The notes: generated from the letters alone by a model not told the origin. 64,000 nt of DNA from a virus (IMGVR_UViG_3300045004_000088:128001-192000), one strand, 5' to 3'; shown: positions 5,359 through 57,860, counted from the stretch's first letter. Made by a program: numbers and translations.

Positions 5359-5692
5359 ACAGGCAGATGCCGGCTTTCTTGAGTCGTTCCTCGTGATCGA
5401 GGTCGATGATGCTTTTCACTTCCTTCGGGATCAGGGACGGCTCCTTCTCGTAGACCCGTTCCCAGTAGCCCCACTGGTCTTCGCTGGCCGGGTTCTGGAT
5501 CACCATGCCGAGCTTCCAGTATTTGTAGAGGATCTGCTCGACCCGCTCTTTGGTCAGTCCGGCCTCTTTGGAGAGTGCGGAGACGCTCCTCCAAGCCCAC
5601 TTCTGGTGCCGCGAGAGGACCATGAAGAGAGCTTGTTCTTCATCGCCCTCTTTGGTGCCGTGCGGGTACACTTCCGACCACTGCTTTGGCAT
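5357..5692 (-). CDS. hypothetical protein
   Basis: 111-aa ORF; AAGGTGA RBS upstream of the ATG. Confidence 0.55.
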   Translation of the reverse strand: MPKQWSEVYPHGTKEGDEEQALFMVLSRHQKWAWRSVSALSKEAGLTKERVEQILYKYWKLGMVIQNPASEDQWGYWERVYEKEPSLIPKEVKSIIDLDHEERLKKAGICL

Positions 5693-5839
5693 AACTCACC
5701 TTTTGTAAGACGTTTTTGCGTGCAGGATAATAAATACCCAGGCAACGACCGCAGGAACGACGCCCGCGAGACTCTGTTGATATAGTAGCACGCCAGAGCC
5801 AACAAATGCTCTGCTTCTTCAAACAGGAACGGTGAATGA

Positions 5840-6523
5840 ATGGGAAACAAGTACAACAGGTACGAGAGAAAGCAACTCCAACAAGAAAAACTAGCTGCAT
5901 CTCTGGCCGGAACCGGACTCTACGTCTACCGGAATCCGAGCAGGACGGGAACCCTTACCCTGCCGAAGCCCAACGCCAACGGTGAACGAATCGTAGGTCC
6001 GGGCAAGGAATTTCAAGGCGACAGTTATTTCATGTCGCTCGTACAGACGGGGGATCTGATCAAGGTCCGTACCCTCAAGTCGCCGGCCCAAGAACAAGCA
6101 GAAAGAGCGGAGCAGCAAGCCAAGCTCGCACTGGCAGCGGCACCCGCACCGGCACCTGTCCCGGTGAAGATCGAAAAGAACGGCAACGTCTTTTCGGTCG
6201 ATCTGGACAACTTGTCACGCGAAGAATCCGAAGCACTGATCGCCAAGATCAAAGCAAAGTTCCACAGCCAGCACTCCGACGATGTGCTGACCGAAGCGGT
6301 GGACGCAAACCCCAAAGCCCGCCAAACCAAAAAGGCCGAGAGCATGAAACCGAACCAAAAGAAGTTGGTCCTCGACCAACCCGACCGCATCACGACCGAA
6401 GGCAAAGTGGAAAGCGTCGTCCGCGACGACGTTCCGGTGAAGCCGCTTCACGACCACGACGCCAAGAATCAGAAGGACGTTCTGCTCAACGAAGTCCCGG
6501 ACGGCGAAATCATCATCGACTGA
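5840..6523 (+). CDS. hypothetical protein (Ala/Pro-rich linker)
   Basis: 227-aa ORF with AGGAACGG RBS. Confidence 0.55.
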   Translation: MGNKYNRYERKQLQQEKLAASLAGTGLYVYRNPSRTGTLTLPKPNANGERIVGPGKEFQGDSYFMSLVQTGDLIKVRTLKSPAQEQAERAEQQAKLALAAAPAPAPVPVKIEKNGNVFSVDLDNLSREESEALIAKIKAKFHSQHSDDVLTEAVDANPKARQTKKAESMKPNQKKLVLDQPDRITTEGKVESVVRDDVPVKPLHDHDAKNQKDVLLNEVPDGEIIID

Positions 6524-6641
6524 CCGAAGAAGTGCTTTACAACCCGATTCCCGCGACCTATAGTGGGAATCGGGAAATCCTGCAATCGAATTCAAGGGGG
6601 CCAATCGGCCCCGTCGTAGCTTTCCCAACCGGGGATCAGCC

Positions 6642-6875
6642 GTGAACTCTCCAGTCGCCACACTTTCAAGTGAAGAGATCGCAGCCTCAGTGAAGTCATT
6701 CGCCGAGGCAGTGGGGTACGTCGAAACCGACCTCCACGACTTGTTCCAGAGGGTCAATAACGTCCCGGTGGAACAACTGAATCCCGAACAAAAGGCCAAG
6801 TTCGACAAGGCGCGGCAGAAGTACCTGCGGTGTCTTCAAGAGTTCGGATTACAAGAAATTCCGTCCGACCAGTAA
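6642..6875 (+). CDS. small hypothetical protein
   Basis: 77-aa ORF; possible GTG alternative start at 6639. Confidence 0.45.
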   Translation: MNSPVATLSSEEIAASVKSFAEAVGYVETDLHDLFQRVNNVPVEQLNPEQKAKFDKARQKYLRCLQEFGLQEIPSDQ

Positions 6876-6893
6876 ACCAGACGAGGACTCAAG

Positions 6894-8108
6894 ATGAGTA
6901 GCCTGATCGTTCAAGTGTGCCGAGTCGATAAAGTCGAAGAACATCCCAACGCAGAAAAACTTGCCCTTGCAACAATCAAGGGCTGGAAAACCTGTATTCG
7001 TAAAGACGAAACCGGCACCCAGTTCAAAGAAGGCGATCTCTGCGTCTTCTTCCCGCCCGACGCCGTTCTCCCCAAAGAACTGTCGGATCGGCTCGGCGTC
7101 ACCAAGTACCTCAAGATGTTGGGCAAAGGCACGGACGGCAAGACCCCCGAAGGGGGCCGTGTGGCCGTTTCGCGTCTGCGCGGGCATCCGAGCTACGGGT
7201 TGATCTCCAAACTCGACATCCTGCCAGTCAAGATGAATCCCGACTTCTCAATGGCTTGGAAGCCGGGCGATGACGTGGCGTCCACTCTGGGCATTACCAA
7301 GTGGGAGCCGCCGATGACCTGTACGGACGGGGACGCAGAAAAGCCGCACCCGGCGTTCCACCGCTACTTCACACTCGAAAACTACCGCAACTTCCCCGAC
7401 TTGATTCCCAAAGGCAAGCGGGTCGTTTTCACCGAAAAGATCCACGGGAAGAACTGCCGCGTCGGACTGATCAAGGACACTGGCCCGGACGGTGAAATGG
7501 TCTGGACGTGGATGGCCGGTTCCCACGACGTTCGCCGCAAAGAGTTCGTCACCCGCAAGCGGAAGATCCACGACCGCGAAACGGGCGAAACAAAAACCGA
7601 AGAATACCAAGACAAGTCGCAGTTTTGGCAGGCTCTGGACCGGCCGGGCGTGCGCGACATGATCGACACCATCAGCGGCGGAAAGACGAGCGGTGGCTGC
7701 GTCGATAACGTCGTCGTCTTCGGCGAGATCTTCGGCAGCGGCGTTCAGGACATGGCCTACGGGATGGCGAACGGGAACTGGGACTTCCGCGTGTTCGACA
7801 TCACCGTCAACGGCAAGTACATGAGCTTCGCCGAGAAGATGAACTGGTGCCACATCCACGATGTCAAGATGGTGCCGATCCTGTACGAAGGCCCGTTCAG
7901 CGAGGAAGAGGTCGAGAAGTTCGTGGGCGGCAACACTACCGTCTGCTCATCGGAAGAGAACGGCAAGTTCAAGGGCCGCGAAGGGATCGTGATCACCAGC
8001 GAAATCGAAACTCAAGCCGTCACCCCGGAAAAGGTGTTCGACCGGATGGCACTCAAGGCCATCAACTTCGAGTACCTCGAACGCGCCGGCGGCACGGAAC
8101 ATCACTAA
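6894..8108 (+). CDS. RNA ligase (Rnl2-like nucleotidyltransferase) with N-terminal tRNA-binding OB-fold (Myf/Trbp111-like) domain
   Basis: N-term VEEHPNAEKLALATIKGW matches the tRNA-binding domain. KIHGKN matches Rnl2 motif I (KIHGTN); EGIV motif IV; LKAI motif V. Confidence 0.7.
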   Translation: MSSLIVQVCRVDKVEEHPNAEKLALATIKGWKTCIRKDETGTQFKEGDLCVFFPPDAVLPKELSDRLGVTKYLKMLGKGTDGKTPEGGRVAVSRLRGHPSYGLISKLDILPVKMNPDFSMAWKPGDDVASTLGITKWEPPMTCTDGDAEKPHPAFHRYFTLENYRNFPDLIPKGKRVVFTEKIHGKNCRVGLIKDTGPDGEMVWTWMAGSHDVRRKEFVTRKRKIHDRETGETKTEEYQDKSQFWQALDRPGVRDMIDTISGGKTSGGCVDNVVVFGEIFGSGVQDMAYGMANGNWDFRVFDITVNGKYMSFAEKMNWCHIHDVKMVPILYEGPFSEEEVEKFVGGNTTVCSSEENGKFKGREGIVITSEIETQAVTPEKVFDRMALKAINFEYLERAGGTEHH

Positions 8109-8542
8109 TGTCCCTCAACGATTGGATCGAGTTCGACACGCCACCCTACGTCGCCTATTGCCCTCGATGTGGCGATCCGGGTTTGATTCCAAGTCACCGC
8201 GACTACATGAACGGCACTCTCTGCGAGTCCACGGACGAGTGCCGTCGTTGTGGTTACTACTGCGAATTCTCTTACGGAAGCACGAACGAAGGCGACAATT
8301 CGACCGAGGAGAACGCGCGTATGATCGGCATGCACGACGAACACAACGCCGACGACCCCTTCAAGCTCGAACTGAGCATCACCGCGCTCGTTCAGGCCAC
8401 CCGCCGTATGAAATACGGCGAACACCGCTTCCTGTCGGAACTGGTACGTCAGCGGAAGAAAGATCCCCTCTACAAGTCTTCCACCGAGTTCAAAAACCAC
8501 ACCGACATGCTGGAAGAACTACTCGAAGCCGGATTTTTCTGA
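8108..8542 (+). CDS. Cys-rich zinc-ribbon-like hypothetical protein
   Basis: ATG overlaps the upstream stop (TAATG); CPRCG...CRRCGYYC motifs. Confidence 0.5.
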   Translation: MSLNDWIEFDTPPYVAYCPRCGDPGLIPSHRDYMNGTLCESTDECRRCGYYCEFSYGSTNEGDNSTEENARMIGMHDEHNADDPFKLELSITALVQATRRMKYGEHRFLSELVRQRKKDPLYKSSTEFKNHTDMLEELLEAGFF

Positions 8543-8604
8543 CGCAATTTCGGAGACATCGGCGGCGAGTGCTTTTACCCACTGTCTCGATTCCAAAGGA
8601 AAAC

Positions 8605-8931
8605 ATGAAAACCTACACTGTCGTCGTCGTTGACGAAACCAAACTCGGCATGGTGCAAGAAGAGATCGGCAACATGGCCGGCGTGGGCAACATCACCCAC
8701 GGCAACCTGAACATCCTGATCGTGGAGTCCAGCCAGCCGCTGAATCTGGCGGCGGTTCACGGCGTAGAACGCTATGATGAAATCGGCGCGACGGCCGACT
8801 TCGTTGAAGGTCTTCGCGTTCGCGGCGAGGTCGTGCCGGAAAGCGAGTTGAAAGATCACCCCGCAGACGGCGTCACCCACGTCGAAACCCCCGAAGGGGA
8901 AATCAAACGGGTCGCTTTCTCGGCGGTGTAA
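8605..8931 (+). CDS. hypothetical protein
   Basis: Met 162 of ORF 8122..8931 with AAGGAAA RBS. Confidence 0.5.
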   Translation: MKTYTVVVVDETKLGMVQEEIGNMAGVGNITHGNLNILIVESSQPLNLAAVHGVERYDEIGATADFVEGLRVRGEVVPESELKDHPADGVTHVETPEGEIKRVAFSAV

Positions 8932-9291
8932 ATGAAGCACGAAACGACAATCGAATACTGCGACGGCAACTTGAAGCACCTCGCCGTCGATATTGCCAAC
9001 CTGCAATACGACGCACTGCAAGACTTTTTGCTGTCGCTCGCGGAAAAACTTGAGAAAGACGCCGAGGCCGACCGAACCAGAAATCGGCCTATACTGTCCT
9101 CTCGATTGGAAGCGGCGGCGAGAAACATCGAAGACGCAGCCAGGGCGATTGCTCTGGCTTGGAAAATCTGCAAGCCTCATGTGGAGAACCAAGATGGAAA
9201 GCGATGCTCTGGGCGACCGGATGAAGATGTACGAGCGTGCGGGAACTGCGGAACGGTTCATGCCGCTTCTGCCAGTGATGGCACGAATTGA
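8932..9291 (+). CDS. hypothetical protein (uncertain; 3' end overlaps the Thg1-like gene)
   Basis: 119-aa ORF, ATG overlapping the upstream stop (TAAATG); the last ~100 nt overlap the 9194 start. Confidence 0.3.
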   Translation: MKHETTIEYCDGNLKHLAVDIANLQYDALQDFLLSLAEKLEKDAEADRTRNRPILSSRLEAAARNIEDAARAIALAWKICKPHVENQDGKRCSGRPDEDVRACGNCGTVHAASASDGTN

Positions 9292-10015
9292 CGGTCGCGC
9301 CTTCCACAGCTTCGTTCGCGGTCTGGAACGCCCCTACGATCAGCGCCTGAGTCAGATGATGATCGACACCACCAAGTACCTCGTCAAAGAGACTGCGGCG
9401 GTGATGGGCTACTGCCAGAGCGACGAGATCGGCCTGTGCTGGTACAGCGGCAACCCGGAAACCCAGATCTACTTCGACGGCCGCGTGGCGAAGATGATCA
9501 GTCAACTGGCCGCACAGACCAGCGTGTACTTCTACCGCCTGTGCGTGGACCGCCTGCCACCGGAGTACGCCGCGAAGATGCCGACCTTCGACTGTCGGTG
9601 CTGGACCGTGCCGAACTTCAACGAAGCCGCGAACACCTTCCTCTGGAGGGAGTTGGACGCGAGCAAGAACTCGATCTCGATGGCGGCGCGGAGCGTGTAC
9701 TCGCACAAGGCGTTGGAGAACAAGAACGGGTCGGAGATGCAGGAGATGCTCTGGCAGAAGGGCGTCAACTGGAACGACTACCCCCGGTTCTTCAAGCGGG
9801 GAACCTTCATCCAGCGGCAGATCGTGACCCGGAAGTTCACCACCGACGAACTCGACAAGTTGCCGCCGCAGCACGAGGCCCGGCACAACCCGGAACTGAC
9901 CTACGAGCGGTCGGACTACGTCGAACTGGACATGCCGCCCTTCAACAAGGTGGCGAACCGAGCGGCGGTCATCTTCGAGGGTGCCAAGCCGCAACTCTAC
10001 TCGTGTGCCGGGTGA
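9194..10015 (+). CDS. Thg1-like protein (tRNA-His guanylyltransferase family 3'-5' nucleotidyltransferase)
   Basis: GGAG RBS. VMARIDGRAFHSF matches the Thg1 VVVRLDGRNFHRF motif; GYCQSDE matches the GxSDE metal site. Confidence 0.7.
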   Translation: MESDALGDRMKMYERAGTAERFMPLLPVMARIDGRAFHSFVRGLERPYDQRLSQMMIDTTKYLVKETAAVMGYCQSDEIGLCWYSGNPETQIYFDGRVAKMISQLAAQTSVYFYRLCVDRLPPEYAAKMPTFDCRCWTVPNFNEAANTFLWRELDASKNSISMAARSVYSHKALENKNGSEMQEMLWQKGVNWNDYPRFFKRGTFIQRQIVTRKFTTDELDKLPPQHEARHNPELTYERSDYVELDMPPFNKVANRAAVIFEGAKPQLYSCAG

Positions 10016-10018
10016 ACC

Positions 10019-10219
10019 ATGAACCTCTGGTGTCGTCTGTTCCACCGCTGGAAGTACCACACCTACTTCGGCCCGACGTGTACGGAAACGACCGTCCACG
10101 CGGCTTGCGAAAAGTGCAAAAAGGTGTACGTCAGGATCTCTCGCGACTGTGCGCCGAGCGACGTGTTCTTCCAGAAAACCGGCATCGACTACAACTCGGT
10201 CGCAACCAAGTTCAACTAA
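10019..10219 (+). CDS. small Cys-containing hypothetical protein
   Basis: 66-aa ORF starting 4 nt after the Thg1-like stop. Confidence 0.4.
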   Translation: MNLWCRLFHRWKYHTYFGPTCTETTVHAACEKCKKVYVRISRDCAPSDVFFQKTGIDYNSVATKFN

Positions 10220-10258
10220 AGCAGCAAAGGCTACCAATTTGGTAGCCTTTGCTGCTTT
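10218..10258 (+). terminator. perfect hairpin terminator
   Basis: AAAGCAGCAAAGGCTACCAAA/TTTGGTAGCCTTTGCTGCTTT inverted repeat right after the stop at 10219. Confidence 0.6.
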
Positions 10259-10286
10259 AGTTGGTACAATCGAGTCGGAGGAACAC

Positions 10287-10403
10287 ATGCCGACCCCCCT
10301 CGAAATGATCGACGCGAAAGTCAAGAACTGCAAGCGTTGCGGTCTGTGCGACGGTCGCAAGAACACGGTTTTCGGCGAGGGCAATCCTTCCTTCTCTAAC
10401 TAA
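10287..10403 (+). pseudogene. N-terminal 38-aa fragment of a family-4 uracil-DNA glycosylase, truncated
   Basis: CKRCGLCDGRKNTVFGEGNPSF matches the UDG4 CxRCxLxxxRxxxVxGEGN motif. A stop follows; the rest of the domain is absent and a low-GC insert comes next. Confidence 0.5.
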
Positions 10404-10431
10404 CCATCTGTGCTGGTGATGGGTACAAAAA

Positions 10432-10482
10432 CACCGAGACGATATTGGATCACTCAAGTCCCGAACACCGTCTCGGTATTTA
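10432..10482 (-). terminator. hairpin with U-tract downstream of the minus gene ending 10524
   Basis: ACCGAGACG/CGTCTCGGT 9-bp stem with a large loop, followed by TTTTTG on the minus strand. Confidence 0.3.
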
Positions 10483-10523
10483 CTGTCTTCGGAGTTTATC
10501 TTTTACTTCCTGTAAGTCGCCGT

Positions 10524-11009
10524 TTATCTTTTCTTCATGCGTTTTGGACTGTTTGTAATACGAATGATCCTATCAACTTCTGATTCTTCTGGTTGAGACA
10601 TCCGACGCTCAACCTCTGCATCTGCTTGTTTTTGAAGTCGTGTATCTCGCTCATCATCTGTTTCCCAATTATCCATTTCTCCAGGCTTGATAAGCCCAAA
10701 GTGCTTATACGCTGGCCCAAATTTTTCCATTTCCTTTGGCGTACTGTTACGAATTAGTGGGTTGGGATGAGATTTATACTTCTCATAATGCTGCATGGCT
10801 TGTTGCATATATTGGTCATCTGGACTCAATTGTTGGGCTATAGGAGCCTGAACTGCCCCGCCAGCACCTAACATAGTTCCAGCAACAAGTGCTGGAGCAA
10901 GGGCTTTCTTTCCTAACCATCGCCCAGCACTACGCAATTGATGCCCACCCCAAATTTCATTATACATTTGCTGATCTCGTACAGCAAGCCATTCGTGAAA
11001 TGTATTCAT
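10524..11009 (-). CDS. hypothetical protein in a lower-GC inserted block
   Basis: Met 168 of ORF 10524..11510; starts 4 nt after the stop of 11014..11955; local composition is AT-richer. Confidence 0.45.
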   Translation of the reverse strand: MNTFHEWLAVRDQQMYNEIWGGHQLRSAGRWLGKKALAPALVAGTMLGAGGAVQAPIAQQLSPDDQYMQQAMQHYEKYKSHPNPLIRNSTPKEMEKFGPAYKHFGLIKPGEMDNWETDDERDTRLQKQADAEVERRMSQPEESEVDRIIRITNSPKRMKKR

Positions 11010-11013
11010 ACAG

Positions 11014-11955
11014 CTATTTAGTAGATGGACTTGATTTTTGCAAAAACTGACCTCTCTCATCACGCTCCATAACCCTCTTCTTCTGACTTTCAGAGAGTTT
11101 CTTACGGCTCTCGTCACTCCACACCTTGCCCAAATGGGCCGTGCGGCGTCCGTTGTGCTTCTCGGCAAGAGCCTGACACTCATCAACCTCAAGCACCTGG
11201 GTCGGGATGAATGGATTGACCGAGTTGATCTCGGCACGGCACAGTTTACAGCCGTTGTCGTTTCGGCTGGTGTCGAAGTACAGGACGATCTCCTTGAGAT
11301 GTGGCCGCAGCAGTACCGCCTTGTTCTCACCTTCTGCTTGCACCACGTCGCCACAAAGGGTCTGGATAGTTGTTGCCGCTTCCAGAAGATGTTGCTTGGA
11401 CTGCCGGTACTCAGAAACCAGGGAATGCAGACCAACCTCCAGTTGTTCGATCTCCACCTGTTTGTCCTTGATAAACTGTTTGATGTCAGGATCGTCGCCC
11501 ATGTCAGCAAACTTCAAGATCAACTTCTGCTTCTCGGCTTTCAAAGAAACGACCTTACCACGCACAGACTGGTGAACTTCATCAAAGATTTCTTGGTACG
11601 TCAATTCCAAATAGTCGGCGTCATTGTCTGGAGTCGCCATGTACTTCCACGCACGCTTCTTGAAGTTCTTGGCCTTCTCATCCTCCGTATCGCCAGGGAG
11701 GTTAGCGAAGATGAACTTATACATCTTCTGAGCGACTTCACCGCAAGCGGCGATGGCATTGTCTGTCCGCTTGTTTGTTGGGTCCAGCATCTCTCCGATC
11801 AGTTCGTTGACGATGCCGTTGGAGGACTTGACCTTTTCACAGAGCGTAAGGTAGCTCTTTTCGAGCCAACGCAGCCAGTTGTCAATGATTTCGTGGATCA
11901 CGTCGATCTTGACTGCCCCACACTTCTCACAGCGATAGTTTTTCGACGGCTTCAT
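11014..11955 (-). CDS. NUMOD3-motif protein, putative homing-endonuclease-like or DNA-binding
   Basis: 313-aa ORF; C-term GRRTAHLGKVWSDESRKKLSESQKKR resembles NUMOD3; N-term CEKCG; lies inside the UDG-disrupting insert. Confidence 0.5.
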   Translation of the reverse strand: MKPSKNYRCEKCGAVKIDVIHEIIDNWLRWLEKSYLTLCEKVKSSNGIVNELIGEMLDPTNKRTDNAIAACGEVAQKMYKFIFANLPGDTEDEKAKNFKKRAWKYMATPDNDADYLELTYQEIFDEVHQSVRGKVVSLKAEKQKLILKFADMGDDPDIKQFIKDKQVEIEQLEVGLHSLVSEYRQSKQHLLEAATTIQTLCGDVVQAEGENKAVLLRPHLKEIVLYFDTSRNDNGCKLCRAEINSVNPFIPTQVLEVDECQALAEKHNGRRTAHLGKVWSDESRKKLSESQKKRVMERDERGQFLQKSSPSTK

Positions 11956-12043
11956 CCCATCGACGGCAGCGCGTTCGACTGCGACATCCTCGACATGATC
12001 GCCGCGTTGAAGAAGAAATACGCCGACAAGCCATAATTACAGC

Positions 12044-12409
12044 ATGTTCAAAAAATGGCTCGTCTTACGCGAAAACGATGAATCAGCCTTCATTCAGGCC
12101 ATCAAAGCGAACCCGACAGACCGCACGCTCTGGCTGGTCTACGCCGACTGGCTAGATGAACACGACCGCCCCGAAGAGGCGGCGGCAATCCGCAAGGCTA
12201 AAGCCGCCCCTCCTCCGAAAAGCCGACAAGTCAACAGCATGGGCGAACGCGAGTACCAGAGCTTCGGTACTTGGCGGAAAGCGATCATGACCGAGTTCCC
12301 CGGAGCCACATTTGACGGCAACAAGGACATTGCACAAGCATTGTTCTACGGTACGGGTGTCGGCGAATGGGACGGGGAACGCGGGGTCATCTACGCCAGG
12401 AACAGTTAA
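12044..12409 (+). CDS. TIGR02996-like (repeat-companion domain) protein
   Basis: ANPTDRTLWLVYADWLDEHDRPEEAAAIR matches a motif that is expanded in Planctomycetes and Myxococcota. Confidence 0.55.
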   Translation: MFKKWLVLRENDESAFIQAIKANPTDRTLWLVYADWLDEHDRPEEAAAIRKAKAAPPPKSRQVNSMGEREYQSFGTWRKAIMTEFPGATFDGNKDIAQALFYGTGVGEWDGERGVIYARNS

Positions 12410-12864
12410 GACTTGCCTTTGCCGTAGTGTCTAGCAATGGCGCGAGCTACGTCCGGCCAGATCCTGCGAACACCGGGGTGCAGGTTCTTTGACGTGATGT
12501 GTGACAGCGGCACCCATTCGTAATCGCTGCTCTCGTCACTCAACTTGACGTTGTACGGCTTCTCAATGGTCATCAGATACGTCTTGAAGACGTGGTGGCC
12601 GTCCTGATCGGTGAAGTCATCGATCCGCGTCATCGACGGCAGATTGCCACTCTCTTCTTTGGCCTCACGGTGGGCCGCGCCGATGTCCGATTCGCCCGAC
12701 TTCACTTTGCCGCCAGGAATGGCCCAGGTGTTGGGTTGGTCGCACGGCGGCTTCCGCTTCAGCAAAAGAACCACATCACCGTCCGTCATGAACAGACCGG
12801 CTCCACGTTTGCCGTACCGCTTCTTGCCGCCGGCACCGATTCGCGAAAACCCGGATTTACTCAC
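12406..12864 (-). CDS. Nudix hydrolase
   Basis: Nudix box GGKVKSGESDIGAAHREAKEESG (GX5EX7REUXEEXGU). Confidence 0.7.
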   Translation of the reverse strand: MSKSGFSRIGAGGKKRYGKRGAGLFMTDGDVVLLLKRKPPCDQPNTWAIPGGKVKSGESDIGAAHREAKEESGNLPSMTRIDDFTDQDGHHVFKTYLMTIEKPYNVKLSDESSDYEWVPLSHITSKNLHPGVRRIWPDVARAIARHYGKGKS

Positions 12865-18112: not shown

Positions 18113-18671
18113 TGCCCATTTCGAGCATCCAGCCATCGGTGTTCGGCTTGACCGAGGACACACGCCACCACCGCTTATCCCCGTTTTGTGGATAGAGTAC
18201 AGATCCGACTGTGACTTGATCGGTGGGACACCAGATGGTGAGCGAGATGTCGTCGCCCAAAAGGATGATCCCTTCAAACGTGAACGGTTCGCCGGTGTAG
18301 TCGATTTTTGTTTTCATGTCTCCGTAAAGCTCGTCTTTCACTTTCTTAACAACGCCGGGCAAGCAATAGATAACGACCTTGTTTGGCGAGTGTTTGAGTA
18401 CGGATGTGACTTTGGGCGGGGGCGTCTCAACTTTGACGCTCTCGACCGGGGGCAGATCTTTGGTGATGTCTTGAACGGCCTCGGCCAACTCATCCACAAA
18501 ACTGACTTGCTCCAGGGATCGGTAGTCTGTCTGGCCCGTGTCGGGAACGACCAATTCTTTGAATTTGAAGTTGTGGAGTGTGAAATCACCATTCCAGATT
18601 TCCTGATTCATCATGAAAGGATTGGTTCTGTTCAGTCGGTACGGCGTTCCGTCAGATTTTCTGAGCGTCAT
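18075..18671 (-). CDS. hypothetical protein (N-term MTLRKSDGTPYRL)
   Basis: Met 53 of ORF 18075..18827 with AGAGGA RBS; N-term DGTPY motif shared with the gene at 20479. Confidence 0.5.
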   Translation of the reverse strand: MTLRKSDGTPYRLNRTNPFMMNQEIWNGDFTLHNFKFKELVVPDTGQTDYRSLEQVSFVDELAEAVQDITKDLPPVESVKVETPPPKVTSVLKHSPNKVVIYCLPGVVKKVKDELYGDMKTKIDYTGEPFTFEGIILLGDDISLTIWCPTDQVTVGSVLYPQNGDKRWWRVSSVKPNTDGWMLEMGISDFQPRFRATP

Positions 18672-18699
18672 GGAAGTCCTCTTTATTTTTAGGCACGCA

Positions 18700-18707
18700 C
18701 TATATAC
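18700..18707. promoter_or_regulatory. GTATATAG motif (minus orientation) in a divergent intergenic region
   Basis: About 30 nt upstream of the minus gene start 18671 and 47 nt upstream of the plus gene 18754. Confidence 0.3.
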
Positions 18708-18753
18708 AAGAGCTTGCCGCTTCGCTAATACAGTTCGCAAGAACGGGAGACAA

Positions 18754-19152
18754 ATGTCACTAACAGTACCCCTGACCTCGCAGATCGTTCTGCTCCAGTA
18801 TTTGATGGGGCTGACCGCGCCGGGCAATAAGATTCTTCACCTGTACAAAAACGACCCGTCGATTTCGACAGCAACGACGCTTGGCAGCTTGACCGAATCG
18901 ACCGAAGCCGGGTACGCCCCGGTCACCCTGTACTCGATCAGTTGGACCATCTCGCAGGACATGGCGAGCGTCACGACGGCGATCTACAGTGAAATGCCGT
19001 TCGACTTCACGACCGGAGCGACGGTGTACGGATACTACGTCACGAGTGCGGCGGGAAGCCTGCTGTGGGTCGAGCGGTTCGGTGGCGCTCCGTATCAGCT
19101 TCCGGTCAATGGTGGCCAGATCGCTGTTTCGGCCAGAGCGACCCTCGACTAA
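18754..19152 (+). CDS. hypothetical protein
   Basis: Met 48 of ORF 18613..19152 with GGGAGA RBS. Confidence 0.5.
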   Translation: MSLTVPLTSQIVLLQYLMGLTAPGNKILHLYKNDPSISTATTLGSLTESTEAGYAPVTLYSISWTISQDMASVTTAIYSEMPFDFTTGATVYGYYVTSAAGSLLWVERFGGAPYQLPVNGGQIAVSARATLD

Positions 19153-35203: not shown

Positions 35204-35839
35204 TCATCTCGATCCCAAATAAGTGTCGGCATTGAGCATCGAATGGTGCAGAGCATGAGCGTTCCCAAGAACGTCGTGGAACTTGGGCTGCAAGAACTGT
35301 TTGTACGCTTCGAGCATCTGAACCGCGCAAACACGCGGCTCCATCGCTCCAATCGCGGTTCCGAGGCCCGGACACAGCATCGAGTCGATCTTGTGGGCTT
35401 TGGCCGCTCGTAGGGCCGCACGGAACGCCAAGAAAGCGTTAACGGTCTGCCCGACTTTCATCGGCACACGCATGGTCGGGGCCGAGATCAAGTAAGGCGT
35501 GCGGTTCACGCGGGCGTTGTGTTGAGGATGATGCGGCAGCGTCTCCCTCATGTCGATCACAGCCGCCTGTCCGACCAAAAGCTCGCCGTCGAACTCGGTC
35601 CAGATCTTGGCGCGAAGGTTGTCGCCGATGCCCCAACCGAAGTATTCGCTGTAGACGAAGTCGATCCCGCCGTCCATGTAGCCGAACGAGTTCGCGGGAC
35701 TGACGATGCTCATCACATCGAGGTGTTCGCCCTCTTGGAAGATGTCGCCACAAGAGGCTTTGATGTTGTTGTTTCCCGCGAAAACTTGTTGCCAAGCGCG
35801 GACGAGTTCTGGATTGCGGTCGCGAAGGAAGATTTTCAT
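35204..35839 (-). CDS. macro-domain protein (ADP-ribose binding/processing)
   Basis: Met 76 of ORF 35204..36064; VMSIVSPANSFGYMDGGIDF resembles the macro-domain NAAN...GGGV signature; weak RBS. Confidence 0.55.
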   Translation of the reverse strand: MKIFLRDRNPELVRAWQQVFAGNNNIKASCGDIFQEGEHLDVMSIVSPANSFGYMDGGIDFVYSEYFGWGIGDNLRAKIWTEFDGELLVGQAAVIDMRETLPHHPQHNARVNRTPYLISAPTMRVPMKVGQTVNAFLAFRAALRAAKAHKIDSMLCPGLGTAIGAMEPRVCAVQMLEAYKQFLQPKFHDVLGNAHALHHSMLNADTYLGSR

Positions 35840-35893
35840 GCAGTAACCAAATATTCGCGGCGAAAAATTAGCGCAAGTTACTTGTAATATATT

Positions 35894-36139
35894 ATGAGCG
35901 TAATTTACTTCCTGGGTCTTGAAGACCAAGCCGGACTCGACAACCTCCTCGCGATCCGCCAAGAGAACGAACGCAGGCAGGCTCTGACTTTCGATGACTA
36001 CCAACTGCCGGCCTTCTACGAAAACACAATGCCCGACATTCGTCGCGTAGACAAATGCGGGCATATCTTTGAGGCCGTGAAGGTCAACAACGACACGTTC
36101 GTGCTGACCGTTGGTGGCAACGCCTACGGAGCCAAGTGA
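35894..36139 (+). CDS. small hypothetical protein
   Basis: 81-aa ORF; no SD but an AT-rich TAATATATT stretch just upstream (possible leaderless transcript). Confidence 0.45.
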   Translation: MSVIYFLGLEDQAGLDNLLAIRQENERRQALTFDDYQLPAFYENTMPDIRRVDKCGHIFEAVKVNNDTFVLTVGGNAYGAK

Positions 36140-36598
36140 TCACAGGCCGATCTGACGCCGCATCGCGGTGATCTTTTCGAGCGGCATCCAGTCGGCGAAA
36201 TCGCCCGCGTCGTACAGTTCGGCGAGTTGATCGTAGCTGACCCAGTTCCAGCCTTCGCACTTGTGCGGCTCGGCGTTGACCGGCTCGCCCGCGACCCAGT
36301 CGGCCACCATGAAGATCGTGATGTAGTGCTTATCGTAGTTCTTCATCACGTCGTTGGTGACGAACACCGCGTTCTGCACGGGGAAGGTACGCACACGCAC
36401 CTTGAAGTTCGGCCCGCACTCTTCCCGCAGTTCGCGGAACAGGCACTCTTCCCACGTTTCGTTCCAGTCGAGATGCCCGCCCGGAAACGAGAGCAGACCG
36501 GCCGCGTGTGAGCCTTTCCGCCGGCCCACAAGAACCTTCCCGTCCTTGATGACCATCACGCCGATCCCGACACGCGGGTTCTTTTGAGGGGAATCCAT
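36140..36598 (-). CDS. Nudix hydrolase (second copy in the window)
   Basis: Nudix box GGHLDWNETWEECLFRELREECG. Confidence 0.7.
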   Translation of the reverse strand: MDSPQKNPRVGIGVMVIKDGKVLVGRRKGSHAAGLLSFPGGHLDWNETWEECLFRELREECGPNFKVRVRTFPVQNAVFVTNDVMKNYDKHYITIFMVADWVAGEPVNAEPHKCEGWNWVSYDQLAELYDAGDFADWMPLEKITAMRRQIGL

Positions 36599-45385: not shown

Positions 45386-45571
45386 ATGGAAGACGAATCC
45401 AAGAAGGAAGGCAAACTGCCCGAATGCCCAGAATGCTCCGGGCCTCGCGCCGTGTACTGTCGTCAACCCCACACGCTCCGAATCGAGTGTCCCGACTGCG
45501 GTCTGAAGACCGCCGAGTACGCCGAAGACGCGGGCGGCGTCATGTCTGTTCCGTGGGGACATTTGCTGTAA
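45386..45571 (+). CDS. small zinc-ribbon protein
   Basis: CPECSG...CPDCG. Confidence 0.4.
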   Translation: MEDESKKEGKLPECPECSGPRAVYCRQPHTLRIECPDCGLKTAEYAEDAGGVMSVPWGHLL

Positions 45572-45911
45572 GACCGAACGCCTGTCGAACGTAGTTCCAT
45601 CCGGGGAAGCCGCCGAGGTTGCGATCATCAATGTAGCAGTGGGCGTAAACCTTACGCCCACCGTCGTCGCGGAAGTCATCTTCTCGGCGGTTCTCGTTGA
45701 CGGAATGAACCTCGACGCCGTGTTTCTTGAGGAACCTGACGGCTTCGGTGAGGTACTGACGCTTGCGAGTGTCCTCGCGGCAGGTGTTGAGGACGATGGT
45801 GTGGCCGGCGACGATCAGGTCGCGGAGGGTTTGGATGCCCTCAAGCGGCTCGCCGATGTCCGGGTAGTCATGTTCCACAACAGTGCCGTCGAAGTCTACT
45901 GAAATGATCAT
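45540..45911 (-). CDS. HAD-superfamily phosphatase (possible nucleotide or polynucleotide 3'-phosphatase)
   Basis: Met 22 of ORF 45540..45974 with GGTGA RBS; motif I ISVDFDGTV (DxDGT). Confidence 0.5.
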   Translation of the reverse strand: MIISVDFDGTVVEHDYPDIGEPLEGIQTLRDLIVAGHTIVLNTCREDTRKRQYLTEAVRFLKKHGVEVHSVNENRREDDFRDDGGRKVYAHCYIDDRNLGGFPGWNYVRQAFGLTANVPTEQT

Positions 45912-45921
45912 GGAGTCACCA

Positions 45922-46164
45922 ATGGAAATGAAAGCCATGTGTCTCACGTTCGGGGAACTCAAACCCAGAGACACGTTCGTTACGGTAGGTGGTCACAGTC
46001 TACTGCAAAAAATCCATCCTGTCAAAAGCAAGAGGACGCCGGGCCTCCAGTACGTCGCACAGGACCATGTTTCCGGCGTGATCGTGCCTATGGAAGACTC
46101 AACCCTCGTTTACATCGTGGTAATCGGAGATTGGGCGAAACGAACGGATCTCAAGGACGACTGA
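45922..46164 (+). CDS. small hypothetical protein
   Basis: Internal Met of ORF 45883..46164 preceded by GGAG. Confidence 0.35.
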   Translation: MEMKAMCLTFGELKPRDTFVTVGGHSLLQKIHPVKSKRTPGLQYVAQDHVSGVIVPMEDSTLVYIVVIGDWAKRTDLKDD

Positions 46165-51395: not shown

Positions 51396-53648
51396 TTACA
51401 GGGTGCAGGCACCGGAAGCACATCCGTCCTTCTCTTTGGCGAAGTGCTTGTTGCCGTCTTCGGTGTTGAGGTAGTAGAGCGACTTGCCGCCCGACTTGTA
51501 GAAGTGGATCATCTCCTTGATGATCTGCATGTACGGGATCTTCTTGTCCTCGTAGTTGGACGGGTTGAAATACTGGTTGCAACTCATCGCCATGTCCATC
51601 CACTTCTGGATGACGGCGCAGACGTTGAGGTAGCCGATGTTGTCGGGCATATCGAACGCCAACTGGTAGTGTTCGGCCGACTTGACGTTCGGAACCAAGA
51701 ACGGCAGGCTCGACTTCTTGGAACTCTTGAACGCCAAGATCGACCGCACGGGTTCGACGCCGTTGGTGACGTTCTGCGAAGCCGCCGACGACTCGCACGG
51801 CATCTGGCACGTCAGCGTGGTGTGCCGCATGCCGTGTTCCTTCAACTCGGCGCGTAGCGACTCCCAGTCCATGCCCGCCGGACGGTTGGTCGGAAGGTCT
51901 TTGAACTTCTTGTCAACAGGCAGCCAGCCGTTGGAATACTTGGACGACGCGAACTTGTCGCACACGCCCTTCTCTTTCGCCAAGTTGATCGACGCTTTGA
52001 TGAGGTAATACTGCTGCTTCTCCATCCACTCGTCCACCAGATCTAGTGCGGCCGGGTCGCCGTACTTCACCTTGTTCGACGCGAGGAACGCGGCGAGGTT
52101 GGTGATGCCGATGCCGAGAGATCGCTTGCCCGTGCAGAAGTTGCGGGCCGCGAGATCGAAGTAGTCTTGGATGTCGATCAACTCGTCCAGCATACGCACG
52201 ACGCAGTCGCAAACCCGCGCGAAGTCCTCGTCGGAAGTGATCTCCAACCAGTTGATGGCCGACAGCACGCACACGCCGATTTCTGACAGCGGGTCGTTGA
52301 TGGCGCGGAGCGGCTCGACGGCTTGTGTGACCTCCGTGCAGAGGTTGGTCATGTTGACCTTTTCGTTCCACGACCCGTAGGTGTTGACGTTGTCCACGTT
52401 GAAGATGTAGATGCGGCCGGACTCCAACCGCTCTTTCACGAGCAGCGAGAACAGGTCGCGGGCCGGCACGGAGTGGCGGCTCTTGATCGACTCGTCCTTC
52501 TCGTACTTCTGGTACAACTCATCGAACTCGTCGGTGCCGAAGGCGTCGTACAAGCCGGGGACTTCGTGCGGCGAAAACAGGGTGATGTTCTCTTTCTTCA
52601 GGAACCGCTCGTAGAACAACCGGGACAGACCGATGGCGTAGTCCAAGTTGAAGACGCGGTTGTCGTGGGTGCCGGTGGTCGCGTTCTTCAACTGGATGAT
52701 GTTCTCGATCTCGTAGTGCCAGATCGGGAAGTTGATGGTGGACGAGCCGCCGCGCACGCCGTTCTTCTGCCACGCCTTCGTGTTGGCCTCGGTGATCTTC
52801 AAAAACGGAATGACGCCGGGGTGCAGAATCGTACCGTTCTTGACGGGCGTGTTGATGGCCCGCATGCGCCCGTAGTTGACGCCGATGCCGTACCCCTTGC
52901 ACGTCGCTTCCGCGACCGCGTTGTTGGTGGCGTTGATCGAGTCGCAGGTGTCGAGCATCTCGATGAGGCAGCACGACGCGAACGAGTTGTTGTTCGTACC
53001 CAAACCGGCCAACTGCGGGGTGGCGAGGTTGATCTTGAACTTGCTGAAATAGTTGTAGGCCCGCTTCACCATCGGCAGCCGCTTCGCCGCCGGGTAGCGG
53101 TGGAAGATGGTCATCGCAGCGACGATGTAACGGAACTGCGGAGTCTCGTGAAGTTCCTTCGTGTGCTGGTTCTTAACGAGGTACTTGTCGCACAACTGCT
53201 TGGTAGAGCAGAACGTGTACGTCAGGTCGCGGTCGTGAACGATGAACTCATCGATCTTGTTGATCTCTACGTCGGTGTACCACTCCATCAGGTCTTTGGT
53301 GTAGTACCCATTTTTGATGTTCTGGCGGATCAAATCGATCAGCTTCGGCGGGTTCTTACCGCCCCACACGTTCTTGCGGATCTGGTAGTTCAGAAGCCGA
53401 CCCGCGACGTACTGGTAGTCCGGGTTTTGCTCGCTGATGAGGTTCGTCGCCGAGTCGATCAGAACGGAGTGGATCTGTTCCGTCGTGATGCCATCGACCA
53501 CATTGAGCTTCATGTTGATCTCAATGTCGGAAACGCTGACGTTCGACAGCCCCTCGATTGCCCACGAAACCACTCGACTGATCTTCTCGATCTCGAAGTT
53601 CTCCCGCGACCCGTTTTTCTTCACCACACTGATCTTATTTACAGACAT
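51396..53648 (-). CDS. nrdA: ribonucleotide reductase class Ia large subunit
   Basis: 750 aa; N-term ATP-cone; catalytic core; C-term ...GCASGACTL; AGGAGA RBS. Confidence 0.85.
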   Translation of the reverse strand: MSVNKISVVKKNGSRENFEIEKISRVVSWAIEGLSNVSVSDIEINMKLNVVDGITTEQIHSVLIDSATNLISEQNPDYQYVAGRLLNYQIRKNVWGGKNPPKLIDLIRQNIKNGYYTKDLMEWYTDVEINKIDEFIVHDRDLTYTFCSTKQLCDKYLVKNQHTKELHETPQFRYIVAAMTIFHRYPAAKRLPMVKRAYNYFSKFKINLATPQLAGLGTNNNSFASCCLIEMLDTCDSINATNNAVAEATCKGYGIGVNYGRMRAINTPVKNGTILHPGVIPFLKITEANTKAWQKNGVRGGSSTINFPIWHYEIENIIQLKNATTGTHDNRVFNLDYAIGLSRLFYERFLKKENITLFSPHEVPGLYDAFGTDEFDELYQKYEKDESIKSRHSVPARDLFSLLVKERLESGRIYIFNVDNVNTYGSWNEKVNMTNLCTEVTQAVEPLRAINDPLSEIGVCVLSAINWLEITSDEDFARVCDCVVRMLDELIDIQDYFDLAARNFCTGKRSLGIGITNLAAFLASNKVKYGDPAALDLVDEWMEKQQYYLIKASINLAKEKGVCDKFASSKYSNGWLPVDKKFKDLPTNRPAGMDWESLRAELKEHGMRHTTLTCQMPCESSAASQNVTNGVEPVRSILAFKSSKKSSLPFLVPNVKSAEHYQLAFDMPDNIGYLNVCAVIQKWMDMAMSCNQYFNPSNYEDKKIPYMQIIKEMIHFYKSGGKSLYYLNTEDGNKHFAKEKDGCASGACTL

Positions 53649-53755
53649 GTCATTCTCCTGATCTCAAATACCCAAAGGGAGGGTATCTAAGACACCCGTC
53701 GTTTTTTCTAGTTGGTATTAGTTCGTGAAGCCGGTCGCCTTGCGCGAACGCGGCG

Positions 53756-55777
53756 TTAAGAGTCGGCCAGCTTGGAAGTTCCGTCTTTCATTTCGATCCA
53801 GATCGTGTCGCAGCCGTTGAGCAGCGACAAGAGTCCCTGATCGTGCGTGGTGACAAAGACTTGCATCTCTTTGGACATCTCGCAAATCATGTTGTAAATG
53901 CCCTGAACACCGATTGGGTCGATGTTGGTGGTGACTTCGTCCAGAAACACAACGGACGGGCTGGACCCGAAGTTGCAGATCTGGATGTACCGGAACGCCT
54001 GAGACACCGACAGGTTGAGCCGCCGCCGCTGGCCGTTCGACATAATGTGGTACAGGAACTGCGTCCCGTCCGGCGGGTTGCGCTCGATCTTGATTTCCAA
54101 CTCGTCGTCAAACGTCAGCGTCAGCTTGTTGTCGATCAGGTACTGCAACCAGTACGAGATCTTGGAGTTCAGTGCCGGGATGATGCCCGACATGACGTAC
54201 TTGCGAATGCCGGTGTCGCCGAACGCCTTGATCCAGTAGTCGAAGTAGGGCTGGTCCTCTTCGCACTGCTTGATTTCCTTCTCTTTGGACTCGCACGCGA
54301 CCTTCTTGTCGGACAAGTCCTGCATCGTGTCTTCGAGAACCTGCTCGTAGGGGTTTGGACCTTCGAGTTCGTCCCGACGCTGTTTCGCGAGCGTGTGACA
54401 CTGCTCCATCTTCTGTTGGAGCAACGCGATTTTCTTGTCAATGTCGGGCTTCGGTACGGCTTCCAGACGGCGCACAGTCGCCTTCAGTTGGTTGAGCTTG
54501 TCGTGGCCGTTATCGACCCGAATCTTGGCGTCGTTCAGGTTCTGACGCATGACCTGAACTTGATTCTGTTTGCCCTTGTGCCGCTCAACTAGGGTGATCC
54601 GTTCAGCCTCGGCAGTGTCGGCCGCTTCGGTGAACTCACGGATGGCGGTTTCGAGCGCTTCCAGAACGTGGGTGCAGTTGGACTCATCGACGGTGCCGTA
54701 GCACGCCGGGCATTGGGTGCCGGACTTGTCCTTGAGTTCCTTGAGTTCGCCCCCCTTCTCGGCCGCACAGTTGCGGTTGTACGAGATGATCTGGTTCGCC
54801 TGCTTGATGGCGACGGCGAGCGTACCCTCGTCTTCGAGCAGTTTGTGATACTGCTCGGTTGCGTTGTCGATGAGGGTTTGGATCTTGGTCAGCTTGTCCT
54901 GTTGCTTCTGCAAATCCGATTCGGCTGCCGGCAACTGGTCCTGAGCCTCTTGGTATTCGAGAGCGGCCTTGCCCGCGTCGGACGCCGCGATCTCGTTCCT
55001 GATCTTGTTGGCGAGGGCGTCGTAGCCCTTGATCTCTTCGAGCTTCTTGGCCTTCCAGTTCTGAACCTGTGCGCGGATCTCCCCGACCCGCTTGTCCATG
55101 AGTTCGCGGTCGTGAACGAGGATCTCGTACTCGCGGGTGAAGTTCTTCAGGTTGTCTTTGTTGATCTTGGCGAGATCCTTCGCGTTCTGCGAGTACGTCT
55201 GGTACTTTTCGAGCGACAGCAGGTTCTCCACGATCTGCCGCTTGGCGGGAACGTCGCATTCGAGGAAGGCGTTCGTGTTATCGTCGGTGAAGACGACGAC
55301 GTTGACGAACGTCTCGTAGGACATGCCGACGATGTCTTCGATGGCCTTCTGGGTCGCGGGCATGCCGCCCAACGTGATCTCGGTCGTCTCGTTCCAAACG
55401 CCCTCCGCACTCTTCCAGAGCCGCAGTGATTCGGGCTTGCGGCACCGGACGACGCGGTAGTCGTCCCACTGAACTTCGACGTAGAGCTTCTTGCCCGTCT
55501 TGTTGTGGATCACGTCGTTGTGGCCGATCTTCTTCGGCCGCTTGATCGTCTTGCCGTAGAGTCCGTAGACGATCAGTTCGGGGACGGAGCTTTTGCCCGC
55601 GCCGTTGCTCGACTCCTTAGCCTCTTCGGAGTCGTCGTCCTGACTGCAAGAAACGTCGAGGTTGCGACCCCTAATGAGGACGATGTTCCCCAGATTCTGA
55701 AAGTTGATTTCGATACCTTCTTCGCCGAAGCAAAGGAAGTTCTTGGCTTTCACGAACTTGAAAACGTGGCGTTTCAT
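53756..55777 (-). CDS. SbcC/Rad50-like recombination ATPase (T4 gp46-like)
   Basis: Walker A NGAGKSS; long coiled coil with CPAC zinc hook; signature SNGQRRRLNLS; Walker B VVFLDEV; H-loop TTHD; Met 13 with AAGGA RBS. Confidence 0.75.
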   Translation of the reverse strand: MKRHVFKFVKAKNFLCFGEEGIEINFQNLGNIVLIRGRNLDVSCSQDDDSEEAKESSNGAGKSSVPELIVYGLYGKTIKRPKKIGHNDVIHNKTGKKLYVEVQWDDYRVVRCRKPESLRLWKSAEGVWNETTEITLGGMPATQKAIEDIVGMSYETFVNVVVFTDDNTNAFLECDVPAKRQIVENLLSLEKYQTYSQNAKDLAKINKDNLKNFTREYEILVHDRELMDKRVGEIRAQVQNWKAKKLEEIKGYDALANKIRNEIAASDAGKAALEYQEAQDQLPAAESDLQKQQDKLTKIQTLIDNATEQYHKLLEDEGTLAVAIKQANQIISYNRNCAAEKGGELKELKDKSGTQCPACYGTVDESNCTHVLEALETAIREFTEAADTAEAERITLVERHKGKQNQVQVMRQNLNDAKIRVDNGHDKLNQLKATVRRLEAVPKPDIDKKIALLQQKMEQCHTLAKQRRDELEGPNPYEQVLEDTMQDLSDKKVACESKEKEIKQCEEDQPYFDYWIKAFGDTGIRKYVMSGIIPALNSKISYWLQYLIDNKLTLTFDDELEIKIERNPPDGTQFLYHIMSNGQRRRLNLSVSQAFRYIQICNFGSSPSVVFLDEVTTNIDPIGVQGIYNMICEMSKEMQVFVTTHDQGLLSLLNGCDTIWIEMKDGTSKLADS

Positions 55778-57855: not shown

Positions 57856-57860
57856 CGCAG

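Follow-up and report, generated by a model that had tools for sequence, protein, structure and literature searches.

Why does a phage carry, only a few small genes apart, an RNA ligase and a Thg1-like protein (TLP), an enzyme of the 3'-5' nucleotidyltransferase kind? The two genes lie on the + strand of IMGVR_UViG_3300045004_000088:128001-192000, a stretch of 64,000 nucleotides that we call the window and in whose coordinates all positions are given unless a locus is named; the ligase is at 6894-8108 and the TLP at 9194-10015. An initial annotation from the sequence had read the pair as an Rnl2-type ligase and a Thg1-like polymerase belonging to a counter-defence kit. It placed both open reading frames (ORFs) correctly, in one co-directional string, and profile searches return significant RNA_ligase and Thg1 matches, far beyond chance. 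On balance we lean toward the view that the two are co-expressed and complementary tools of RNA repair, which would keep tRNAs functional in the course of infection. The pair is supported by the gene identities, the intact catalytic residues, the fold, the co-directional packing and conserved linkage in relatives; we infer its substrates, its co-transcription and a role in counter-defence, and the last of these is plausible.

The ligase is a member of the Rnl5 family

The ligase (404 aa) matches Pfam RNA_ligase (PF09414, E 4.6e-22, aa 176-373), the PHA02142 OB-fold at its N-terminus (PF21189, E 1.9e-10, aa 6-104) and PHROG 968 'RNA ligase' (3.3e-49). It passes the NCBIfam equivalog model TIGR02306 (RNA_lig_DRB0094) with 165.2 bits against a trusted cut-off of 151.15, residues 11-397 aligning with positions 8-341 of the 341 in the model, and its best solved relative by sequence is the Naegleria gruberi RNA ligase, NgrRnl (E 6e-13, N-domain through motif I). 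An N-terminal OB domain (~aa 1-140) is followed by a nucleotidyltransferase (NTase) domain (~aa 145-404); there is no C-terminal module, the protein ending 16 aa past motif V. An AlphaFold2 model built on 44 homologues (mean pLDDT 92.2) gives a full-length Foldseek match to NgrRnl, with a target-normalised TM of 0.80-0.81 and E ~1e-21.

Motif I is E181-K182-I-H184-G185, in which K182 (nt 7437-7439) is the predicted AMP-accepting lysine; the others are III (E278), IIIa (F301), IV (R362-E363-G364) and V (K388). The KIHGKN and EGIV of the initial annotation are there, as EKIHGKN (K182) and REGIV (E363). Invariant in the 44 homologues are K136, E181-K182-x-H184-G185, E278, F301, R362-E363-G364 and K388, and six of these residues (K136, K182, H184, E278, E363, K388) are kept in nearly all phage copies. 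K136 (TKWEPP) aligns directly with Lys121 of NgrRnl, and D56 is a candidate for its Asp53; a counterpart of NgrRnl Arg4 was not assignable. In NgrRnl these three N-domain residues hold the second metal and the gamma-phosphate of ATP. Judged by these residues, the ligase looks catalytically intact.

Motif I reads K-I-H-G as in T4 Rnl2, not K-L-D-G as in NgrRnl, which explains why the ligase was first called 'Rnl2'; it is an RNA ligase (PF09414), and membership of Rnl2 was rejected. TIGR02307 gives 21 bits against a cut-off of 197; phmmer finds T4 Rnl2 with only E 0.014 over 70 aa; the Foldseek match to T4 Rnl2 (E 3e-7, TM 0.41) covers the NTase domain only, and that to Trypanosoma REL1 likewise the NTase half; and nothing after motif V is able to form the signature C-terminal domain.

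The N-terminal domain had been described as a tRNA-binding OB fold of the Myf/Trbp111 type, and in the fold this is partly right: weaker Foldseek matches (E 2e-4 to 0.2) are to the PheRS B2 domain, the tRNA-binding protein 3bu2 (E 0.016), MetRS-C, EMAP II and Trbp111 (3ers, E 0.16). The family assignment does not follow, as tRNA_bind (PF01588) has no match to the window ligase at E<=0.1; one homologue, P0110, has a precomputed PF01588 match. The domain is the Rnl5 family's own defining N-domain, and its resemblance to tRNA-binding OB folds is structurally fair. Its demonstrated role is not to bind tRNA but to contact the ATP gamma-phosphate during lysine adenylylation (PMC7261155; PMC4408790), for which it is required. 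Rnl5 enzymes seal 3'-OH/5'-PO4 nicks in duplexes with RNA as the 3'-OH strand, and also join such an RNA strand to a DNA 5'-phosphate strand (PMC4408790).

The ligase frame of many phage homologues is broken between motifs I and III, giving two ORF pieces (IMG/VR loci L141, L146, L152, L157, L163, L165-L167, L172, L176, L181, L185, L191, L193 and L196), which suggests introns, inserted endonuclease genes or frameshifts. A long spacer between motifs I and III was considered as a mark of TLP-linked ligases and rejected, its length being 58-154 aa in linked and unlinked ligases alike.

The TLP is of the bacterial type

Mechanical ORF calling gives a frame at 8993-10015 with a TTG start. Alignment starts at residue 2 of the Bacillus thuringiensis TLP (BtTLP), so the likely start is the ATG at 9194, for a protein of 273 aa. 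The initial annotation had called this gene Thg1-like from RIDGRAFHSF and GxSDE, and the call holds: Pfam Thg1 (PF04446) matches with E 2.3e-26 and 92.7 bits against a cut-off of 29.2, PHROG 4717 'tRNA-His guanylyltransferase' with 6.7e-80, and both RIDGRAFHSF (R31, D33) and QSDE (S76, D77, E78) are present. The best solved relative is BtTLP (PDB 4kgk; E 8e-40 over ~205 aa), with weaker matches to eukaryotic Thg1 (Candida Thg1 1.4e-14, human THG1 1e-8). Residues E12, R28, D30, S74, D75 and E76 of BtTLP (listed in PMC3701042) correspond to E14, R31, D33, S76, D77 and E78 in the window TLP; the mapped functional residues are invariant or nearly so in 20 diverse TLPs, the carboxylates D33, D77 and E78 wholly so. 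Where Candida Thg1 has HINNL, of the eukaryotic HINNLYN motif, the window TLP has SKNSISM, and BtTLP likewise. HINNLYN is tied to tRNA-His recognition. A C-terminal extension (~aa 215-270, ~55 aa) is conserved and common to myxobacterial and planctomycete TLPs, without a counterpart in BtTLP. We take the protein to be a bacterial-type TLP, apparently catalytically intact from its residues. BtTLP favours 5'-truncated tRNAs of any identity, to which it adds nucleotides 3'-5' in a template-dependent manner, using the 3' strand (PMC3061083).

The nearest cellular TLPs (61-65% identity) are in Nannocystis genomes and in metagenome-assembled (MAG) contigs assigned to Gemmatales and other Planctomycetota; the Gemmatales MAG contig with a close TLP may itself be phage DNA. 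The closest cellular TLP (L047:10847-11752, Nannocystis sp. RBIL2) adjoins an ADP-ribosylglycohydrolase gene, and no ligase is nearby.

One co-directional gene string

The two genes stand in the following string:

6642-6875, + strand: small ORF, 77 aa, GTG start, immediately 5' of the ligase; no family assigned
6894-8108, + strand: ATP-dependent RNA ligase of the Rnl5 (DraRnl/NgrRnl, TIGR02306) family
8108-8542, + strand: ORF A, 144 aa, Cys-rich (CxxC...CxxC), its start overlapping the ligase stop by 1 nt
8605-8931, + strand: ORF B, 108 aa
8932-9291, + strand: ORF C, 119 aa, abutting ORF B
9194-10015, + strand: bacterial-type TLP, a 3'-5' nucleotidyltransferase
10019-10219, + strand: small ORF, 66 aa, 3 nt past the TLP stop; weak matches only (PHROG 2670, DUF1660)

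Third-codon-position GC, which is high (0.7-0.88) in real genes and served as coding criterion, marks 6894-8108 (+) and the 8993-10015 (+) frame as coding. The tight + strand ORF string spans 5840-10219. By consensus matching only, a single promoter-like site (TTTACA-17-TATAGT, 10/12) lies at 6536-6564 (+), upstream of the listed genes, and no terminator-like site was found on the + strand over 5600-11100. We read 6642-10219 as a string of accessory genes in a T4-like myovirus, with the RNA-repair enzymes as its two conserved members.

Three small ORFs, not the four first counted, separate the pair. ORF A has a homologue at 44% identity in the related locus L001, is not kept across the wider clade and matches PHROG 2993 weakly (8e-4). 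ORF B has no family match and no homologue in related loci; ORF C has a homologue in L001 (51% identity). ORF C and the best-supported TLP start overlap by ~98 nt: the overlap may be genuine, ORF C may be shorter or non-coding at its end, or the TLP may start at a later ATG (9221 or 9227). A similarly sized ORF occupies the position of the 6642-6875 ORF in L040 (81 aa) and L041 (89 aa); no sequence match to the window ORF was found in related loci.

Linkage of ligase and TLP in related phages

The following relatives have the ligase and then the TLP on one strand (identities are those of the ligase to the window ligase):

L001: 71% identical; ~2.1 kb between, including homologues of ORFs A and C
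L040: 80% identical; two small genes between
L041: 64% identical; five genes between, including a hybrid histidine kinase
L043: 51% identical; three genes between, including an ion channel
L003/L045: 52% identical; one opposite-strand ORF between
PD_cj3mt: 46% identical; one 59-aa gene between

The interval thus holds 1-5 unrelated genes in relatives, and appears to be an accessory-gene insertion hotspot. The hybrid histidine kinase/response regulator is at L041:11309-12397 and the ion-channel protein at L043:7870-8745.

A scan of IMG/VR with a single ligase sequence gave nothing, and an alignment-based query returned 80 ligase loci. In 8/16 of the closest (at least 36% identity), from phages of 26-58% GC, a TLP lies 0-3.5 kb downstream on the same strand; among the 64 more distant ligases there is no such linkage (0/64). 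In neighbour-joining trees, which are rough and without support values, the TLP-linked ligases form one clade that also holds a few TLP-less members and a cellular copy from Tuwongella. No substitute nucleotide-restoring enzyme is evident in the TLP-less members of this clade; one of them, L135, has NMNAT-like and sugar nucleotidyltransferase genes, and another, L133, an SMC-like ATPase.

Counted from the TLP side, an RNA_ligase-family gene lies within 10 kb in 8 of ~115 IMG/VR loci. Juxtapositions with other ligase clades or in reversed order are found in L112, L235, L229, L270, L011 and L025: the ligases of L011, L229 and L270 are only distantly related to the window ligase, L235 has an OB-plus-RNA_ligase gene downstream of the TLP, not upstream, and directly upstream of the L112 TLP is a ligase that belongs to quite another branch. 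The ligase-linked TLPs are scattered through the TLP tree, a hint of several independent juxtapositions. The linkage is therefore real and conserved in one ligase subclade, recurs elsewhere and is far from obligatory.

The surroundings are also shared. Gene order in relatives is TLP, sugar nucleotidyltransferase, uracil-DNA glycosylase (UDG), NAMPT, NUDIX, gp13. In the window a remnant of a family-4 UDG lies at 10149-10403 (+), beside a lower-GC stretch (10404-11000); over the first 32 aligned residues it is 53% identical to the full-length UDG that L003 encodes, after which its ORF stops. Compared with the order in relatives, the window phage has lost NAMPT, the sugar nucleotidyltransferase and the greater part of the UDG. 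NAD+ salvage genes (NAMPT or NAPRTase, an NMNAT-like cytidylyltransferase, NUDIX) adjoin the pair in relatives L003, L043, L045, L025, L139 and L135. Phages use NAD+ salvage genes against NAD-depleting defences, and the region around the pair may be a counter-defence island.

Elsewhere in the window are T4-like myovirus genes (a gp15-like sheath stabiliser, gp18 sheath, gp19 tube and a baseplate protein) and genes for both chains of ribonucleotide reductase, CTP synthase, gp46/gp47-like nuclease subunits and a DUF5131 protein, with a Macro-domain protein at 35204-36064 (-), 25 kb from the TLP, and two NUDIX hydrolases at 12406-12864 (-) and 36140-36598 (-). An INPHARED nucleotide search gave only short 67-70% matches inside the TLP gene, and no close sequenced relative.

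How widespread each gene is

TLP homologues occur in 163 deposited phage records (INPHARED), mostly annotated as tRNA-His guanylyltransferase, from Bacillus, Prevotella, Caulobacter, Mycobacterium, Brevundimonas and Erwinia phages, 201phi2-1, GAP32 and others. Ligase homologues are in 395 INPHARED records (Pseudomonas PAK_P1-like, Klebsiella, Aeromonas and others); phage homologues of the Deinococcus radiodurans enzyme DraRnl had been noted by Shuman's group in Aeromonas, Caulobacter, Mycobacterium and Sinorhizobium phages (PMC4408790). The host distributions of the two enzymes differ, so that neither requires the other. Genomes with both are CcrPW, CcrColossus, five Brevundimonas phages, LR745206, LR745208 and LR756511. 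In bacteria, the Tuwongella ligase homologue (58% identity) and the Nannocystis TLP each stand alone.

A tRNA island and other repair-themed genes

Two further features of the window had been joined to the pair in the initial annotation:

59459-63234, + strand: window part of a tRNA island, six tRNAs (Leu-CAG, Leu-CAA, Tyr-GTA, Phe-GAA, Ser-GCT, Leu-CAA)
45540-45974, - strand: stand-alone HAD-type phosphatase, BT0820 family, by sub-threshold match

Both exist. The HAD ORF matches its NCBIfam model with 1.9e-30 and 106 bits against a cut-off of 165, and PHROG 1238, with no Pfam match at E<=0.001. Their inclusion in one kit with the ligase and TLP does not stand: the HAD gene is ~35 kb away on the other strand and the island ~50 kb away, and only the theme is shared. 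Stand-alone HAD phosphatases are the 3'-phosphate-removing step of jumbo-phage RNA repair (PMC7824862), and the HAD gene would fit the RNA-repair theme only by this analogy.

The Logan contig L208 matches window 53288-64000 with 100% identity and runs on past the window end, the island continuing in L208:10713-17193. The whole island has at least 13 tRNAs: Leu x7 (CAG, CAA x2, GAG x2, TAA, TAG), Ser x3, Phe x2 and Tyr x1. Several anticodons are duplicated, and packing is tight, with 2-5 nt spacers. Leu, Ser or Tyr, the bacterial types with a long variable arm (class II), make up 11/13; this composition may go back to six-codon families, or to pressure exerted by variable-arm-cutting nucleases (Septu/retron-Eco7, PMC13096335). 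Acceptor positions 1-3 are Watson-Crick paired in 6/6 window tRNAs, neither of the two tRNA 3' ends examined (63141, 63234) has an encoded CCA, and tRNA-His is absent among the 13 island tRNAs, including those in the 9.7 kb beyond the window.

Two ORFs in the island, at 58970-59458 (+) and 63288-63719 (+), have sub-threshold HNH matches (HNH_3 8.7e-5, HNH 0.0058). They may be homing endonucleases amid duplicated tRNA genes, and recall the SegB-driven amplification of tRNA genes in T6 (PMC13096335). Beyond the 3' end of the window (~1-10 kb), L208 encodes a stand-alone Trbp111-like tRNA_bind protein (11667-12011; PF01588, 5.9e-24), a HisRS-like class II synthetase core fragment of 147 aa (18669-19112) and a ribosome recycling factor (20374-end).

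What the pair might do

We envision a ligase that, by homology, would adenylylate itself on K182, pass the AMP to a 5'-phosphate and seal 3'-OH/5'-PO4 nicks in base-paired RNA. Homology with bacterial TLPs suggests that the TLP would start from a tRNA shortened at its 5' end, activate the 5'-phosphate there and add the missing nucleotides 3'-5', with the 3' acceptor strand as template. The pair would keep host or phage tRNAs usable when nucleases nick stems or erode 5' ends, each enzyme covering different lesions rather than being an obligate partner of the other; the island tRNAs are candidate substrates. No Pnkp or other end-healing enzyme was found with Pfam or PHROGs among the ~50 window ORFs scanned, a search that was not exhaustive for small ORFs and the rest of the genome. 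With no such enzyme alongside the pair, the lesions would most likely have 3'-OH/5'-phosphate ends, as from metal-dependent nucleases.

Several observations weigh against this reading. (i) We know of no experiment on any phage TLP or phage Rnl5. (ii) Even in Deinococcus, no physiological substrate of Rnl5 has been established (PMC5397189). (iii) The position of K43 in BtTLP, which serves the activation step, is Arg46 in the window TLP and varies among homologues (R, K, V, I). (iv) The close relatives L002 and L022 keep the TLP and its flanking synteny, with an AAA ATPase and other genes at the ligase site. (v) About 107 of the 115 IMG/VR phage TLP loci have no ligase within 10 kb; deposited jumbo phages with both genes have them 40-400 kb apart; and in 80 bacterial TLP loci, mostly from Myxococcota and Planctomycetota, a ligase is within 10 kb in only two (L060 and L112), both on contigs that look viral. 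(vi) Within the window clade, the linkage could be plain inherited synteny.

The two enzymes might instead be coupled more closely. The TLP would fill a short gap in duplex RNA 3'-5' from the downstream 5'-phosphate and remove the terminal pyrophosphate, and the Rnl5 ligase would then seal the nick; a candidate target is the variable-arm stem of class II tRNAs, cut by the metal-dependent PtuAB of Septu or retron-Eco7. The chemistry is formally compatible: Rnl5 needs a duplex 3'-OH/5'-PO4 nick and the TLP is template-dependent, so that one enzyme yields what the other acts on. As an HNH nuclease, PtuB should leave a 3'-OH/5'-phosphate duplex nick that needs no end-healing and suits Rnl5; the lack of a Pnkp among the scanned ORFs fits such ends. 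Septu and retron-Eco7 cut inside the variable-arm stem of tRNA-Tyr (PMC13096335, 2026), and the long-variable-arm types dominate the island, although Leu and Ser have six codons each and their abundance may be codon supply only. TLPs adjoin several ligase clades, sometimes abutting (L139, L143, L237, L112), and the linked TLPs are scattered in their tree while their ligases mostly cluster; these trees, however, are the neighbour-joining ones without support values, an adjacent ligase is missing in most TLP-bearing phages, and unrelated genes are freely inserted within the pair. Biochemically, moreover, no TLP is known to work on an internal gap or to pass its product on to a ligase. That a T4-like phage clade keeps a dedicated 'reverse gap-fill and seal' pathway for base-paired RNA, undoing defence-nuclease cuts in tRNA stems, is in our judgement unlikely, as is the coupled repair at its core; if true, it would be the first physiological role for bacterial-type TLPs and Rnl5 ligases.

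We also doubt that the two genes have no functional link and are independent accessory genes that a single phage lineage has inherited side by side. The ligase could then seal RNA-DNA junction nicks in replication or recombination, in keeping with the joining of 3'-OH RNA to 5'-phosphate DNA by Rnl5 (PMC4408790) and with the contribution of DraRnl to radiation resistance (PMC5397189), and the TLP could have RNAs other than tRNA as substrates. Relatives share the synteny of the entire neighbourhood (a TPR-glycosyltransferase upstream, NUDIX and gp13 downstream), L002 and L022 do without the ligase at the site, and ligase adjacency, at ~7% of all TLP loci, exceeds what chance would give in jumbo genomes, by a rough estimate, only a few-fold. 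Against mere descent, the linkage lasts across phages of 26-58% GC while the intervening genes turn over, adjacency recurs with unrelated ligase clades and in reversed order, and TLP linkage is confined to the closest ligases (8/16, against 0/64 of the more distant).

A housekeeping role, in which the two enzymes serve the maturation or quality control of the phage's own tRNAs, 13 or more in number (5'-end correction, G-1 on tRNA-His), and do not counter nucleases, is likewise improbable. Dictyostelium TLPs do carry out mitochondrial tRNA 5'-editing and tRNA-His maturation (PMC6471195), the island is large with 2-5 nt spacers and CCA unencoded at the two ends examined, and a tRNA_bind protein and a HisRS-like fragment lie just past the window end. 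Yet the window TLP is without the HINNLYN motif of eukaryotic Thg1, and ordinary tRNA maturation in bacteria offers no evident task for a ligase. Its two specific forms were rejected: 5'-editing of the phage's own tRNAs because positions 1-3 of the window acceptor stems are Watson-Crick in 6/6, which leaves nothing to edit, and G-1 addition because the 13-tRNA island has no tRNA-His.

Comparison with known systems

Both enzymes are ordinary members of known families. The window ligase shares with DraRnl (DRB0094) and NgrRnl (PDB 5COT) the plan of an N-terminal OB and a C-terminal NTase domain, ending after motif V; it is only ~22% identical to NgrRnl, its motif I-III spacer is ~40 aa longer, and where NgrRnl contacts a metal through Asp172 it has His184, a His that nearly all phage copies share. 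With T4 Rnl2 it has in common the NTase fold, motif I EKIHGxN, an upstream xLEN element and the expected duplex-nick substrate, and lacks the C-terminal helical domain of that enzyme. The TLP resembles BtTLP (4KGK) and the Myxococcus xanthus TLP in its carboxylates, its R28 and E12 equivalents and SKNSISM; unlike BtTLP it is phage-encoded, has Arg at the K43 position and bears the additional ~55 aa at its C-terminus.

T4 Pnkp and Rnl1, which act against the PrrC anticodon nuclease, likewise have a phage RNA ligase placed to restore broken tRNA in infection. Rnl1 belongs to another ligase family, specialised for breaks in loops where Rnl5 acts on nicks in duplexes; a 3'-5' polymerase is missing from T4, and in the window no Pnkp was detected among the ~50 scanned ORFs.

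The statement in the initial annotation that no phage pairing of these enzymes had been described was too strong, as both occur in the same deposited genomes and such repair sets are already listed (PMC2904730, PMC7824862). Anantharaman et al. 2010 (PMC2904730) described bacterial Thg1 neighbourhoods with polynucleotide kinase, Macro and sometimes RNA ligase, pointed out a Thg1 in phage 201phi2-1 and proposed RNA repair as an answer to host defences. Iyer et al. 2021 (PMC7824862) gave the jumbo-phage RNA-repair set as tRNAs, RNA ligases, HAD phosphatases, RlaP, a CCA-adding enzyme and, sporadically, Thg1; in this literature Thg1 serves to restore 5' nucleotides. The inventory, Macro included, is that of our window; these accounts describe presence in genomes and bacterial operons. 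A conserved ligase-TLP cassette of phages, or linkage confined to a single Rnl5 subclade, was not found in PMC2904730, PMC7824862 or PMC4408790; Burroughs & Aravind 2016 (NAR 44:8525), outside this comparison, may cover it. The components and the repair idea are therefore already known, and what is modestly new is that this pair stays linked across a clade of related phages.

The in vivo roles of bacterial-type TLPs and of Rnl5 ligases are both still unknown: a 2019 TLP review (PMC6471195) has no mention of phages or ligases, and PMC5397189 calls the physiological functions of the DraRnl family uncharted. The recurring phage ligase-TLP cassette suggests a setting in which their natural substrates might be found, namely infection under tRNA-cleaving defences. 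If the pair does reverse cleavage, it would be a repair-type counter-defence distinct both from the T4 Pnkp/Rnl1 repair and from the supply of cleavage-resistant tRNAs.

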